64,000 nt of DNA. Source: an uncultured Methanosarcinales archaeon (GTDB taxonomy: Archaea > Nanobdellota > Nanobdellia > Woesearchaeales > GW2011-AR9). Below, piece by piece: positions 30,001 through 36,000 of this stretch. The number at the start of each line of letters is the position of its first letter. The stretch's first letter is position 1. A program made the position numbers. Location of the stretch: NCBI GenBank assembly GCA_964362365.1, contig CAYIEF010000002.1, positions 908-64,907 of the forward strand, read 5' to 3'.

Positions 30001-33000
30001 CTTTATTAGACCAGGGGTTAGTTGATGAGGAGATGGTCATTAAACATTTATCTATTCTTTTTAGCACGAAAATGGCTACAAAAATTGTAACATTAGTAAA
30101 AATGAAGAATTTCAAACAGATTCCCATCGCTGCTTTATTATCTATCTTTGTCGGCAAGAAACCTGCGCGCCTTGCTACTTTAGGAGCACTTATGGTTAGA
30201 TGGGTACGCTGGAAACGCCCTCTGAAACCGCATCCTTTAATCAGCATTGTTGGTCCTGATGGTGCTGGAAAATCAACTTTAGTACATTCTTTGCACACTT
30301 ATTTGTTGGCACATAAAAGGAAAGTCGCGGTTGTTTACATGGGGAGAGGCAGGAGACATATTTTACCTTTCATGGCTTTAGGGAGAAAATATAAAAGTGC
30401 AGAAAAAAAGCGTGATGCTAATGCAGTTTACGACGGTGGTGCTTTTCGTAATACTTCTTTTACGCGTTCCTTACTCTACACCTTCTCTTCCCTATTATTT
30501 GTATCAGATCTATTGTTGCGTTACTGGCTGGTGATTTTTCCATTACGGATGCGTAAAAGAATGGTAATTACAGACCGTTACTGTACTGACATAATACTGA
30601 TGAAAAATGTTCCTTTCTGGTGGAAGAAAGCGCTTTATTCTTTATTTCCTAAACCTACTATTTCTATTTTATTGTACAACACGCCAGAAATCCTTCACCA
30701 ACGGCGCCCGCAGGAGACGGTTCAGGAGCTGCAGAGACAGATGGGCATTTTTAATAGGTTAAACTATGATCTGCGGGTGGAAACCAAAAGCTTTGAAGAA
30801 GATAAACAGAAAGTTGTTGATTTTGTGATGGCCAGATTGCTGGTGGATTGGTATTAATGCTTATTTTGAGTTTTTTTGAGCGTTAATTGCCGATATAGAT
30901 CAACAAATTGTTTTGTAACCATTTTAGTGTCAAACTGTCTTGATTTCTGATAGGCATTTTCGGCTAATTTCTTTCCTAATTGCGGATTTTTTAATAATCT
31001 ATTTATCTGTAAAGCTAACGAGACAACATCTCCTGGCGTAGCCATGAGCACTTCTTTTTCTGGTTCAACTATCTCGCGCAGTTCTGGTAGATCAGTAGTT
31101 ACTACCGGCGTCTTACAAGCTATTGCTTCCAATAAACAAGATGGATTTCCTTCAGTAGCAGTAAGATCAAGATAGGGAAGAACCACTACGTTCGCGAGAT
31201 TCACATATTCAACCACATCAAGATCGTCAGTGATAACTTTGATATTAGGCTTATCTTTAACTGAATTAAAAAATTCTTGATCAGGATAATCACGAGGAGC
31301 GATTATAATTTGTGCTTCAATAGATGGACTTGCTTTCACTACGTTTTGCAATCCTTTTTTGAAATAGGTGCTTCCATAGTAAAAAACAATTTTTTTATCG
31401 GAATAACCATATTTTTTTTTAAGATTTTTTTTATCTAAAGGCACAAATTTTTCTGTATCGAGGTGCGAGCGGATAACTTTAATTTTTTCTTTCTTTACTC
31501 CATGGCTTAGGAGTTTTTCGGCCATGACTTGTGTAGGAACAGTTACGACGTCAACAAAATTTAAGATTCTGGAAAAGTATAAAGATCCCCCTGCGGAGCG
31601 GGAGTACGATTTTAGGGTATGGATGGTTTTAGCGTTTTTCTGATATCTCTTGGCAAGGATAGTCTTAAACGCAAATAAAGGGGAAGCGCTGAAATTATGG
31701 ATGACATCAAAAGTATGCGGTTGAGCTTTTATTTTGGAGAGGAATCCAGATACTTTTTTATCAGAAATAACTGTAATCTCCCCATATTGTGACAATTCTT
31801 TGCTAAAATTGTTAGCAGTGATGTGGGTGGCTTCTTTGGTTACTTTTGATTCTCTGGTGATTAAGGCTATTTTCATCTGGAAGCGTGAATCTTGTTTATT
31901 TTCCGTATTTTATAATTTTTTTAGCCGACGTCGCACTGCCTGAGCTGTTTCGGCTAATCCTAATTTCTGTATCCTGCGCATTGTTCGCCGTAATTGTCGC
32001 CAATGACCAAACAAGGTCAACCGATATGATCCAGGAGCATGGAAGCGTATGTACTTATGTCGTAATTGGGCGGAAATCTTAGTGGATTGCAGGCTATCGG
32101 ATTGTTTGTTAATCTCTTTGAGCAGTTGAGGCTCTCCCAATGCTTGAGCGAATGCACATAAAGTCTGAGCATCCATATAGGTCGGTTTTTCACTTCCTTT
32201 TCTTCCTTTATGATAACGTGGAGCAAGGTCTAGATAGTCCTCCAGCTCATTAACGACTCGAAGCAAGATTATCTCACTATCAAAAGAGCTTACGGTATGG
32301 AGGCGGGAGAGTAGGTTGTTGATTTCCAGGGGATGGTAAGACCACTTTAATCTATAGTAGGCAAAGACCAGTTGCTGCACCGCTGGACAAGTTGCATTTC
32401 GCAATTCTTTTGAAATGGAGCAGGATCCAAAATCACCTTCTGAGTAAGCAGCATGGAGCAGAGCAGCAGCTATGGAAGTGCTTGGTTTTTTTAACCAGGC
32501 TATGATGCTGGCGGTGCCGATAAGGTGAGCTAATTGTGTTTTTCCTGATCGGCGATAGCAGCCATTAAAGATTTTAGTAGCTAGCTTATACGCATTGATG
32601 ACCAGAAGAAGATCTTCTTCTTTGTAACCAGCCTTAACCATTTGGTTATAGAGCTGAAGATTGGTTTGAGCAAATGGTTGATCCATGCCTGCTTCTTAGT
32701 GAATTGATTTATATGTTTTGTGACTTTTATTTCCTTGATAGAATAGTTGATAAGACTAAAGAATCACAATGTATTTAAAAGTAAGCAGGGTTTGTTTTTC
32801 GATGGTCAGAAAAATTCTGGTAAGCGACGCTATCGATCTAGAGGCATTTAGAGAAGGAATTGGAGAAAAGAACAAGGATTTTTATGTAGATGTCCGCTCA
32901 GAAATCTCGGCAGAAGAACTGAAGGCGATCATCAAAGATTATGATGGGATTGTCTTTCGAAGCAGGACAAAATTAGATCAAGAAGTGCTTAGCAATTCTA

Positions 33001-36000
33001 ATCTACTGTGCGCAGTACGCGCCGGCAATGGATTAGATAACGTCCATTTAGAAATGGCAAACAAGAAAGGCATACAAGTCTTTAATTGCCCAGAGTTAAG
33101 CAAGGAAAATGTTGCTGATTACACCATGGCGATGCTGGTTAATCTGACCAGAAACCTGGTAAAAGCTCATCTCTCCATGTTGGAAGGAAAATGGGATAGA
33201 GATGTACTGACCGGGTCAAGTTTTAAACATAAAACGTTGGGTATATTAGGTTTGGGAAGGATTGGAACTGAGGTTGTTATAAGGGCTACAGCGCATGGCA
33301 TGAAAGTTATAGCTCATGATATTGAAAAAACGAAGGGATATGCTACAAAATATGGAGTTATTTTAGTGTCATTACCAGAATTGCTCCGACAATCAGATTT
33401 TTTGACTTTGCATCTCCCCTTGGATGCTAAAACGCATCGCTTATTCGATAAGGAGAAGATAGCTTCCCTCAAAAAAGGTGTTTATATCGTTAATTCTTCC
33501 CGGGAACAGCTCTTTGATTTCCCAGCTTTGGTGGAAGCGATTAAAAGCGGCCAGGTTGCCGGATACGCTACCGATGTTTTTGAAGAAGAACCGCTTCGTT
33601 CAGAACATGAGCTGATCAAACTTGCAAAACAAGGATATAATGTCCTATTAACTCCGCACATCGGTGCGCAAGTTACAGAGGTACAACAAAGCATCGCTCG
33701 TGACAGCGGTAAAAAAATAGTTCAATTTTTTGATAGCTTAGGATCAAAGTGAAGGTAGAGCGTAAACGAACCTTCATCACAAAAAGATTTAGTATTCAAA
33801 AACCTTTTAAATTCACGATTTGTTCCAAATGATTTATATGAAACAAAATATGAGAGTTTTAATAACTGGAATTGGAACGGTCGCCGCACAAGGTTTTGTA
33901 AAAGGAGTGCGGCAGCAGGATGAATTTAAGGTTTACTTGGTAAGTACCGATGCGCGGGAAGATAATGCTGGGAGATATTTCACCGATGCTTTTTACAAAG
34001 TTCCTCGCGGAGATGATCCTGCCTACGTCGCGGAGATCATCAAAGTATGTAAAAAAGAAAAAATTGATCTGCTCTTTCCCGGTGCGGACGGGGAAATCAT
34101 GGCTCTTTCTCAACATAAGGAATCGATAGAGAAAGAAACGGGAACAAAGGTAGCGGTTTCTCCTTTCGAAGGAGTTAAGATCTGTGATGACAAATATCTG
34201 GCTTACACCTATTTTGCGAAACATCATTTTAAGACCGTGCCAACCTTCCTTTTGGAAGAAGCAGTTGAGAAGGTGAAAGCGGGAAGATTAGCTTTTCCTT
34301 TGTTCATCAAACCTCGCATAGGCACTGGATCAAAACATACTCATGTTGTCCATAATTTAGAAGAGTTGCAGGAGAAAGCAAGCCTAGTGCCTATACCTAT
34401 CGTTCAACCATATTTAGGCGCATGGAAAGAATTCAGTGTTGATGTTGCCGCTGATTTTAACGGTAAAGTCTTGGGGGTAGTTCCCAGAACCCGTGAAGAA
34501 GTACGCTACGGCGCAGCATATCGGGGAGTTACGGTTAAGGATCCGCTCTTAATCTCTATGGCTAAAGAAATAGTGGAACATCTTGGTTTGATCGGTCCTA
34601 TCAATGTGCAAATTTTCAAAAATCTGCAGACCGGAGAAGCACTGCTCTTCGAGATAAATCCACGTATTGGAGCGACGCATGCTCATACCATTGCCAGCGG
34701 ATTAAATACGCCGCATTTGATGTTAAAGTTATTTAACGGGGAACAACTTGAGCCAAGATTAGGGAAATTTAAGGATAAATTGTGGATGTACCGGCACTGG
34801 GATGAAGTGTATGTGGAAGAGAATGGACAACGATTGCCTAGAAATTATAAATTATTATGAACAAGAAAATTATCTTTGATTTTGATGGCACGCTCTTAGA
34901 TGTGCGTGAGCGGTATTATGCTGTTTTTTGTGAAAGTTGTGCCGTGATAGGGGTGCCCCCTCTTTCTAAAGCGGTGTATCTCGGTCTTAAAGAAAGGGGA
35001 AAAAAAGATTCTCAGATTTTAGAAGAAGAATATAATTTATCTCCGGATATCGTTAATCGATTTAAGAAACATCGTTATTCGATCTTAGAAGAGAGCCGAT
35101 ATCTTGATATGGATGTTTTACATACACCAGTACCAGCGCTTCTAAAAGATCTGCAGGATAAAAAATATGAATTGATTCTTCTCTCCTTGCGGGACAATAT
35201 TTCTGCTAGTTTGGCTCAGTTGAAAAAATTAGGAATTACAGATTTCTTTTCTACTATAGTCTTTACCGGCCCAGTTGTTCCTGGGCAGAGCCATGCTCTG
35301 AGAAAATACCAGCGTTTGATGGAATATTTTTCTCCAGAGGAGCTAGAAGGAAATTATTATGTCGGGGATACGATGATAGATATTGAGACTTCCTCTCAGC
35401 TGGGCACAAAGATGATTTTTGTAGATTGGGGTTTGGATAGCGTAGAAAAGGCGGATACATCAAAAATAAGTTTTATGGCGGAAGATGTTACTGAATTGAG
35501 GAAGATTCTTTTGAAGTAGAAAAACAAGAGATATGCGGATACTAGAGGTTATAAAGTATTTTTTCAAAAAGATATTTTGCGCGGGCATATGCCAAAAGAT
35601 TAAAAACGTCAACATTTTACTTACCAACTAGGGATGATTCGTGAGTATACACTTACGATACTCTTGATAGAGTGATTGGTGTGGTGAATCCTGATGGTAC
35701 TACCAAAAATATTACCTTCGATCGGAAGAATATTACTGATTTTGACGAGAATGGGCACAAGCATATTTACACAATAGATGGCTTGGATAGGATAACTCAT
35801 GTGTATGAATTCATGACCGATGCGCATGCGGGGAATGAGATATACCTCACAAGATATGAGTATGATACCAATGACAACTTAGTCTTGATAACAGATAGTC
35901 AAGGGAAAGATTTGCCAATTGTTTCCTTCTAAGGAAGGGAATGCTGAATACTACTTCAAAGTAGTAAAAATAGAAAGATTTAAATAATAGTTGCGCAACC

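Follow-up and report, generated by a model that had tools for sequence, protein, structure and literature searches.

A 64,000-nucleotide window of contig CAYIEF010000002.1, from a DPANN archaeon of the Hainich groundwater well H51 (0.1/0.2 µm filter fractions), is a surface-glycan island over nearly its whole length and encodes two ATP-grasp ligases, designated here GRASP1 and GRASP2. On balance, it is probable that both are tailoring ligases that N-acylate amines of a di-amino nonulosonic acid (NulO) or of its 4-amino-6-deoxy-hexosamine precursor, and that they would put small acids in place of the usual acetyl group. GRASP1 forms set A with a 2-hydroxyacid dehydrogenase (HADH1) and a HAD phosphatase (HAD1), and GRASP2 belongs to a NulO operon (set B) that also includes an aminotransferase and a further dehydrogenase (HADH2). 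Synteny of set A and of the set B genes is kept in the related archaeal bins L009, L041, L044 and L046, and because of this the arrangement of both sets is not by chance. An initial annotation of the window had listed three dehydrogenases, two ATP-grasp ligases, a HAD phosphatase and an aminotransferase, all of which are found where it placed them, and had viewed them as recurrent sets. The genes instead occur in three different combinations: the HAD gene is present only in set A, the aminotransferase only in set B, and the third dehydrogenase (HADH3) is without a ligase.

The ligase family

GRASP1 (33820..34860, + strand; true start probably near ~33838, as judged from homologs) is a stand-alone ATP-grasp carboxylate-amine ligase of the 2PN1/PRK12767 'CPSase-like' (carbamoyl-phosphate synthase-like) family, to which GRASP2 (46502..47479, +) also belongs. 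The two proteins share 31% identity, and the dehydrogenases of the window are 23-25% identical to each other. Both ligases consist of ATP-grasp domains only (325-346 aa; Pfam PylC-like_N, ATP-grasp_3 and ATPgrasp_Ter). Among solved structures, only 2PN1 was strongly matched by both GRASP1 (E 8e-33) and GRASP2 (E 1e-79). GRASP2 scored 373 bits on NCBIfam model NF009406 (cutoff 271), and GRASP1 reached 207.7 bits on NF009402, just under the cutoff of 218. Both ligases keep the family-invariant ATP-grasp residues, in GRASP1 K125, K164, E204, N280 and R282, and GRASP1 forms a long branch within a mostly HAD-linked group on the family tree.

The family is very large, with 6,469 representatives (clusters at 50% identity, E<=1e-30), and its members are commonly named 'carbamoyl-phosphate synthase large subunit' in databases. 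The structural-genomics entry 2PN1 from Exiguobacterium carries the same kind of name ('carbamoylphosphate synthase large subunit'); neither 2PN1 nor NCBIfam PRK12767 has an assigned function, and the label 'CPSase-like' reflects the similarity of a single ATP-grasp module only. Taken together, this points to an uncharacterised family that is mis-annotated as CPSase. When the family profile was compared with solved structures, 2PN1 ranked first, followed by CPSase modules, L-amino-acid ligases, VanA/Ddl and PurK. A kinship with Cj1438-type amidoligases, as the initial annotation had proposed, is not borne out by this ranking, nor by the TupA-like Pfam model (PF14305), which gave 12.2 bits on GRASP1 (cutoff 25; E 0.13, over 62 residues) and no match on GRASP2 even at E<=10. 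Judged by the refuting condition that came with the initial annotation, the proposed phylogeny fails. The possibility that GRASP1 and GRASP2 are a genuine CPSase or Ddl was rejected as well, since each is a single module of ~330 aa with kinship at the superfamily level only. In the literature, ATP-grasp enzymes in nonulosonic, legionaminic and pseudaminic acid clusters receive passing mentions only.

Other architectures were also encountered in this family, including tandem ATP-grasp-ATP-grasp proteins, FemAB-like proteins joined to an ATP-grasp domain and fusions of a Hexapep acetyltransferase with an ATP-grasp domain (among P0143, P0146, P0193, P0211 and P0261). These fusions suggest multi-step peptidyl or N-acetyl-aminoacyl sugar decorations.

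A conserved phosphoesterase partner

Gene neighbourhoods were compared at 60 loci from species-representative genomes and on additional contigs and plasmids, with neighbours scored locally, and were counted within a radius of 3 kb for 65 ligase homologs, HADs being found by an iterated HAD model. A HAD gene was present near 40 of the 65 homologs, DegT near 33 and NeuB near 32. In ~14 independent lineages, the HAD gene lies directly downstream of the ligase; these include Atribacterota, several Bacillota groups, Chloroflexota, Bdellovibrionota, Acidobacteriota, Bacteroidota, Planctomycetota and one proteobacterium. Many Acidobacteriota loci have the order HAD-NeuB-ligase-nucleotidyltransferase-DegT, in which the nucleotidyltransferase is labelled from a sequence motif and not from a Pfam scan. 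In several proteins the two activities are fused, as ATP-grasp with HAD (L059, P0052, P0053 and P0168), as ATP-grasp with HAD and DegT (L056) or as Bac_transf with ATP-grasp and HAD (P0239). The ligase domain of the last protein is 29% identical to GRASP1 (E 2e-37) and 34% identical to GRASP2 over the full length (E 9e-55). Further, unrelated phosphoesterases take the HAD position elsewhere, namely a metallophosphoesterase (Metallophos) in L070 and a PHP-domain protein on pSymB of Sinorhizobium meliloti. Because of the HAD pairing, the fusions and the replacement by Metallophos and PHP enzymes, much of the ligase family has phosphate removal as an integral partner step, and the data point to one family branch with an obligatory phosphatase partner. 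The initial proposal that an ATP-grasp ligase and a phosphatase act together on a phosphorylated building block is thus upheld by a pairing that is conserved across many phyla.

In the window, this partner is HAD1 (34857..35519, +), a HAD-IA type phosphatase (Pfam HAD_2, E 1e-13) whose DFDGT motif lies near the N terminus, at residue 7. Its start overlaps the GRASP1 stop by 4 nt, and HAD1 is predicted to be translationally coupled to GRASP1. The nearest solved relatives of HAD1 are phosphoglycolate phosphatases, to which the match is weak, and no match to SerB models was found.

Two other roles for the HAD enzymes were considered and rejected. Pseudaminic (Pse) and legionaminic (Leg) acids are 9-deoxy sugars, which speaks against a NulO-9-phosphate phosphatase, and Metallophos and PHP enzymes are unable to act as mutases, which speaks against a sugar-phosphate mutase. 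The fusion of HAD to the ligase was a further ground for the rejection.

A more general doubt is whether these genes have anything to do with the glycan. The dehydrogenase, aminotransferase and HAD families are all common in metabolism, and NCBIfam scores under the equivalog cutoffs assign no specific function, so that housekeeping genes of serine, glycerate or glyoxylate metabolism might have come to lie in the island by coincidence, with the ATP-grasp enzymes in an unrelated role. Such a coincidence is very improbable in view of the 4-nt overlaps of GRASP1 with HAD1 and of NeuC with GRASP2, the synteny in related bins and the ligase-HAD pairing and fusions throughout the family. It would also be unlikely by chance to find three 2-hydroxyacid dehydrogenases within 19 kb of the glycan island of a small genome.

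Direction of ligation

The contexts of the ligase family also bear on which partner gives the amine. In L072, a PglF-type dehydratase, DegT, Bac_transf and an ATP-grasp-HAD fusion are followed by glycosyltransferases, and no acetyltransferase is present there. A related order, (DegT)-Bac_transf-ATP-grasp-HAD(-DegT), was seen in L005, L011, L038 and a Priestia plasmid, likewise with no acetyltransferase close by, and Bac_transf is fused to ATP-grasp in P0180, P0264 and ~20 further proteins; no Bac_transf adjoins GRASP1 or GRASP2 in the window. The cluster L074 encodes RfbA, a dTDP-glucose dehydratase, a flippase, DegT, a GNAT protein, a pyridoxal phosphate (PLP)-dependent enzyme, an ATP-grasp ligase of the family and a glycosyltransferase. 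It is a dTDP-4-amino-sugar cluster with the order DegT-GNAT-PLP enzyme-ATP-grasp and without any sugar-acid gene. L074 (positions 2074-10948) is located on the IncR plasmid NZ_LR890610.1 of a clinical Escherichia coli and resembles an O-antigen cluster flanked by insertion sequence elements.

Because the ligase occupies the position of an N-acetyltransferase beside DegT or Bac_transf, these contexts favour N-acylation, in which the sugar would give the amine and the small acid the carboxylate, and not the reverse. The initial annotation had proposed the opposite bond, a small amine placed on a sugar carboxylate. The gene contexts imply a small acid on a sugar amine, and the link is to a nonulosonate or its 4-amino precursor and not to uronic acids. 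The genes of the diamino-uronic route (WbpB- and WbpD/E-like, 1738-4342) lie far upstream of the ligase sets.

The opposite polarity has its precedent in Campylobacter. Accordingly, a phospho-amine such as serinol-P, ethanolamine-P or phosphoserine might be ligated to a uronic or nonulosonic carboxylate and dephosphorylated by the HAD enzyme, and the enzyme types of the window do match Cj1437, Cj1438C and Cj1435 (PMC11800379). The conserved or fused ligase-HAD(-DegT) arrangement would also fit a DegT enzyme that makes the phospho-amine, a UDP-sugar dehydrogenase lies near the ligase in L072, and the WbpB/D/E-like genes and AsnB-type amidotransferase of the window show that sugar acids are made. 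We nevertheless hold this explanation to be decidedly unlikely. The ligases are neither TupA-like nor fused to GT2, most clusters contain a single DegT that is needed by the aminosugar core itself, and the cassette is found in clusters without sugar-acid genes (L005, L011, L038 and the E. coli and Priestia plasmids). The Bac_transf fusions, in turn, fit the N-acylation precedent of PglB2. To our knowledge, C1-amidated nonulosonates are not an established class. What survives from the Campylobacter analogy of the initial annotation is therefore the logic of ligation followed by dephosphorylation, but neither the ligase family nor the direction of the bond.

Set A: a dehydrogenase, a ligase and a phosphatase

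HADH1 (32769..33752, +; Pfam 2-Hacid_dh_C, E 4e-52) is a 2-hydroxyacid dehydrogenase resembling D-3-phosphoglycerate dehydrogenase (PGDH), in a short form that is without the C-terminal ACT/ASB regulatory domains. Its best NCBIfam match was the PGDH model TIGR01327, with 282 bits, under the equivalog cutoff of 454 and over positions 1-301 of the 525 of the profile. The 13 best solved relatives are all PGDHs, with human PHGDH at the top (E 5e-55). In an alignment to human PHGDH, the motifs R-S-x-T-K, R-A-G and K-W-x-R are conserved together with the catalytic R/E/H residues (the EP glutamate and PH). We take these three motifs to be the anion (substrate) binding residues of PHGDH. The description of all three dehydrogenases as PGDH-like can thus be kept, at the level of motifs, for HADH1, which is genuinely PGDH-like, and not for HADH2, in which these motifs are absent and Tyr stands for His, or for HADH3, which is generic. 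Because HADH1 is genuinely PGDH-like, the part of the initial proposal that invoked a serine- or glycerate-type C3 unit is plausible. As a possible parallel to HADH1, an oxidoreductase beside the PHP-ATP-grasp genes of S. meliloti was considered and dropped, as BLASTP gave no similarity to HADH1 or HADH3.

Near set A, a NodB-type polysaccharide de-N-acetylase is encoded at 37513..38358 (- strand; Pfam Polysacc_deac_1, E 8e-12). In L009 this deacetylase directly adjoins HAD1, so that set A borders directly on the deacetylase and the NulO operon. Deacetylases stand beside HAD-linked ligases elsewhere too: a Polysacc_deac_1 protein directly upstream of ATP-grasp-HAD in L014, a PIG-L protein in L069 and a DUF2334 protein in L072.

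Set A would then be the archaeal form of a widespread ligase-phosphatase cassette. The NodB-type deacetylase may free a sugar amine, which GRASP1 would then re-acylate. The donor would be a phosphorylated C3 acid that HADH1 supplies or converts, from the series of 3-phosphoglycerate, 3-phosphohydroxypyruvate and phosphoserine. HAD1 would subsequently strip the phosphate and leave an N-glyceroyl or N-seryl group. Ligation might occur at the stage of the nucleotide sugar or on the assembled glycan.

Two observations concern the surroundings of set A. Relative to L009, where the gap between HAD1 and the NodB deacetylase is ~18 bp, the window carries an insertion of ~2 kb (35520-37512), whose open reading frames (36062-36688 and 36685-37344) encode a winged helix-turn-helix (wHTH) protein and a DUF6036 nucleotidyltransferase. 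This looks like a toxin-antitoxin-like or mobile pair that splits set A from the NulO operon. On the other side, an HD-domain (HD_4-like) phosphohydrolase is encoded at 31910-32686 (-), divergent from HADH1, and is syntenic in L009 near 8111 (-). It is a putative second phosphohydrolase tied to set A.

Set B: a ligase in a nonulosonate operon

Set B lies within the operon WbuZ(HisF-HisH)-WbuX-AspAT-HADH2-NeuA-NeuB fusion-NeuC-GRASP2 (38594-47479). The first genes of this operon (38594..41332, +) encode a WbuZ-like HisF-HisH fusion and the N-acetyl-sugar amidotransferase WbuX, associated with acetamidino formation (NCBIfam: WbuZ, 269 bits; HisH, 196 bits; WbuX, 363 bits with a cutoff of 203). 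They are followed by a class-I aminotransferase resembling aspartate aminotransferase (AspAT; 41352..42530, +; Pfam Aminotran_1_2, E 4e-61), whose best NCBIfam match was the archaeal AspAT model (323 bits, under the cutoff of 550), and by HADH2 (42531..43487, +). Next come a fusion of the CMP-NulO synthetase NeuA with the NulO synthase NeuB (43549-45363, +; Pfam NeuB, E 3e-90; CTP_transf_3, E 1e-26), a NeuC-type hydrolysing 2-epimerase (45339-46505, +; Pfam Epimerase_2, E 4e-78) and GRASP2, which overlaps NeuC by 4 nt. The interleaving with nonulosonic acid genes that the initial annotation described is therefore real.

GRASP2 stands where an N-acetyltransferase of the LegH/PglD type would be expected. 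In L041 and L046, which are syntenic, the order is NeuC-GRASP2-DegT-dehydratase, and the DegT orthologs directly 3' of GRASP2 score ~400 bits. The DegT-family protein of the window (62737..63900, +; Pfam DegT_DnrJ_EryC1, E 6e-106) is a LegC-like nucleotide-sugar 4-aminotransferase; among solved structures it comes closest to GDP-perosamine synthase, QdtB, ArnB and PseC. The parts of a Leg-type pathway in the window are thus NeuA-NeuB, NeuC and DegT, with the dehydratase seen in L046. The syntenic operon of L046 includes dehydratase, DegT, NeuC, NeuB, NeuA and WbuXZ, and no acetyltransferase in the operon.

HADH2 is an atypical protein of the 2-hydroxyacid dehydrogenase family (Pfam 2-Hacid_dh_C, E 2e-39) without the PGDH anion-site motifs. 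In HADH2 and all its orthologs (L009:16529-17515, L041:4192-5199 and L046:5875-6924), SPY[RK]A is conserved where the catalytic PH-G would stand, with Tyr for the catalytic His, and DVWYDDF stands in place of DVxxEP, so that the EP glutamate is missing. With the loss of the canonical His/Glu pair, the activity of HADH2 may be altered. The AspAT and HADH2 genes are syntenic in L009, L041 and L046.

Set B is best read as a legionaminic-type pathway (AspAT, HADH2, NeuA-NeuB, NeuC, GRASP2, DegT and dehydratase) in which GRASP2 would take the place of the 4-N-acetyltransferase. DegT would install the 4-amine that becomes N7 of the nonulosonate, and GRASP2 would acylate that amine with an unphosphorylated acid. 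For the donor, a scavenged amino acid may be converted by AspAT to a 2-oxo acid and by HADH2 to a D-2-hydroxy acid; this direction is suggested since dedicated genes would be called for only if the acid were non-standard. NeuC, NeuB and NeuA would finish the CMP-NulO, and WbuX and WbuZ would turn an acetamido into an acetamidino group. A phosphatase is present in the set of HADH1, the dehydrogenase with the phosphate site, and none in the set of HADH2, which is without that site; this distribution is internally consistent with the proposed mechanism.

The two donors could also be amino acids, the N-acylation itself being the same. Set A would then place an N-seryl group from phosphoserine and set B another amino acid, yielding aminoacyl- or peptidyl-amido sugars. 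The phosphoserine route has three steps, which do find counterparts in the PGDH-like HADH1, the class-I aminotransferase and the HAD enzyme, L-amino-acid ligases are the next-nearest characterised relatives of the family after CPSase, and the FemAB-like and Hexapep fusions as well as the PLP enzyme and GNAT neighbours suggest (N-acetyl)aminoacyl decorations. In addition, a CPSase-like ATP-grasp enzyme is needed for the peptidylamido sugar of Clostridioides difficile flagellin (PMC5207246). However, the aminotransferase is part of set B and not of set A and is AspAT-like rather than SerC-like, HAD1 is weakly phosphoglycolate-phosphatase-like and without a SerB match, dedicated synthesis genes are needless for standard amino acids, and the Neisseria precedent is a glyceramido group (PMC11130364). 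Aminoacyl donors are thus rather unlikely.

HADH3

The third dehydrogenase, HADH3 (50989..51987, +; Pfam 2-Hacid_dh_C, E 2e-44), is a generic D-2-hydroxyacid dehydrogenase whose best NCBIfam match was Dhydh_Halo (172 bits). Its catalytic triad is kept and the phosphate-site (anion-site) arginines are absent. HADH3 has no adjoining ligase, is syntenic in L044 and L046, and its link to the ligases is unproven. It heads a row (50989-54339) that continues with an S-adenosylmethionine-dependent methyltransferase, a small CDP-alcohol phosphatidyltransferase and an IMPase-family (IMPase/CysQ-like) phosphatase. The last two genes resemble the DIPP-synthase/phosphatase pairing, and the row could provide a phosphodiester-linked alcohol or hydroxy-acid substituent.

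Points against the proposed N-acylation by small acids

Several points weigh against the proposed mechanism. The direction of ligation is drawn from gene context and from genetic precedent in Neisseria, for a ligase family that is uncharacterised. L069 contains both the ligase and a full Leg set with its Hexapep acetyltransferase, and the ligase therefore does not always replace the acetyltransferase; equally, set B could be served by an acetyltransferase from another part of the genome. The UDP-sugar dehydrogenase of L072 makes a uronic-acid acceptor possible at that locus. On the donor side, a 2-hydroxyacid dehydrogenase was found near the ligase in only the five DPANN-like loci among the 65 homologs, and the role of a PGDH-like enzyme would be unexplained if 3-phosphoglycerate were used directly. 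The reaction proposed for HADH2 is uncertain because the canonical catalytic His and Glu are absent. Finally, WbuX/WbuZ, GRASP1 and GRASP2 amount to three N-modifying systems for the two amines of a nonulosonate, and therefore one or more of the three must modify a different sugar or a variant product.

The surrounding glycan island

Besides the NulO operon, the island includes flippases, numerous glycosyltransferases, the WbpB- and WbpD/E-like genes, an AsnB-type amidotransferase, a carbamoyltransferase, GDP-6-deoxyhexose genes, methyltransferases and genes for the synthesis of 3'-phosphoadenosine-5'-phosphosulfate. Two paralogues (29517-30857 and 59132-60430), each beside a GT4 glycosyltransferase, carry both an NTP_transf_5-like nucleotidyltransferase part and a thymidylate-kinase/P-loop-like part. 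Directly upstream of ATP sulfurylase, the gene at 54715-56424 encodes a pyruvate kinase that has a wHTH domain at its N terminus. Both its architecture and its place are odd for a glycolytic enzyme, and it could have to do with the phosphoenolpyruvate supply of NeuB.

The IMPase/CysQ-like gene, ATP sulfurylase and adenosine-5'-phosphosulfate kinase of the window (53488-58108) indicate a glycan that is probably sulfated. Members of the same ligase family lie beside cysD-nodQ-cysQ on pSymB of S. meliloti (L076, 4581-9993) and beside a sulfotransferase in a metagenome-assembled genome of Flavobacteriales (L049:6212-8835), which hints that a link between N-acyl groups and sulfation recurs.

Significance

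How nonulosonic acids and bacillosamine-type sugars are N-acylated influences antigenicity, recognition by phages and hosts, and the function of flagella and S-layers. For N-acyl groups other than acetyl, the responsible enzymes are largely unknown so far, and the genetic basis of N-glyceroyl and N-acetimidoyl substitutions was called 'a major challenge' in a 2017 study of Tannerella forsythia (PMC5378307). The present locus makes this question directly testable. It is possible, and put forward here tentatively, that a route widespread in bacteria and archaea exists in which the ATP-grasp ligase joins a phospho-acid of glycolysis, for example 3-phosphoglycerate, to the amine of a sugar, by way of an acyl phosphate intermediate equivalent to 1,3-bisphosphoglycerate, and the phosphatase then unmasks an N-glyceroyl (or N-glycolyl or N-seryl) group. 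If true, this route would be the missing genetic basis of N-glyceroyl nonulosonic acids and bacillosamines, such as Pse5Am7Gra of T. forsythia and the glyceramido sugar of Neisseria, and in its DPANN version it would be extended by separate enzymes for donor supply. Papers on the Pse locus of T. forsythia give no account of the genes in between. That a DPANN archaeon with a reduced genome devotes ~15 kb to the tailoring of a sialic-acid-like surface sugar also bears on how episymbionts present themselves to their hosts.

Comparison with known systems

The closest precedent is PglB2 of Neisseria, an 'ATP grasp/phosphoglycosyl-transferase' that replaces the acetyltransferase-containing PglB and yields 4-glyceramido-2-acetamido-2,4,6-trideoxyhexose (GATDH) rather than di-N-acetylbacillosamine (PMC11130364; PMC6959607). 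In that system the ATP-grasp module stands in place of the N-acetyltransferase after a 4,6-dehydratase and a DegT-type aminotransferase, and GRASP2 may hold a like position. The product, an N-hydroxyacyl amino sugar, fits a donor related to 3-phosphoglycerate; the acyl donor and a phosphatase partner are not described in the two PglB2 papers (PMC11130364; PMC6959607). The architecture and gene order of PglB2 (Bac_transf with ATP-grasp) recur in relatives of the window ligases, a likeness of architecture. No named Neisseria PglB2 is among the matches listed in two profile searches aimed at it, including the 120 listed for the Bac_transf and ATP-grasp fusion profile. The window ligases differ from PglB2 in being stand-alone, archaeal and part of a nonulosonate operon rather than of a bacillosamine/pilin locus, and in being accompanied by dedicated dehydrogenase, aminotransferase and HAD genes.

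The HS:2 capsule system of Campylobacter jejuni (aminotransferase Cj1437, amidoligase Cj1438C and HAD enzyme Cj1435) shares with the mechanism proposed for set A the ATP-grasp ligation of a phosphorylated small molecule followed by HAD dephosphorylation, and its DegT-type aminotransferase lies in the same neighbourhood, as is likewise the case near the window ligase family. Cj1438C is a TupA-like ATP-grasp enzyme fused to GT2 that activates the glucuronic acid carboxylate of the growing polymer (PMC11800379). In contrast, the window enzymes are of the PylC-like_N/ATPgrasp_Ter type and stand-alone, and their context indicates that the sugar gives the amine. As a counterpart of Cj1435, HAD1 is the predicted phosphatase partner of GRASP1, whereas GRASP2 is without a HAD partner. 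A third parallel is VanH/VanA, in which an ATP-grasp ligase uses what its partner, a D-2-hydroxyacid dehydrogenase, produces. The family profile picks up VanA as a remote match; VanA forms an ester in a peptidoglycan precursor, its kinship is at the superfamily level and it has no glycan context.

Thus, the replacement of an aminosugar N-acetyltransferase by an ATP-grasp enzyme is already known from Neisseria genetics, and the combined logic of ATP-grasp and HAD enzymes from Campylobacter biochemistry, in another ligase family and with opposite polarity. The window adds to these a DPANN archaeal instance that has two paralogous ligases and is embedded among NulO operon genes, proposed enzymes for donor supply (in set A a dehydrogenase of PGDH-like type, AspAT and an atypical 2-hydroxyacid dehydrogenase in set B), and a phosphoesterase that is a conserved and often fused partner across a very large family mis-annotated as CPSase.

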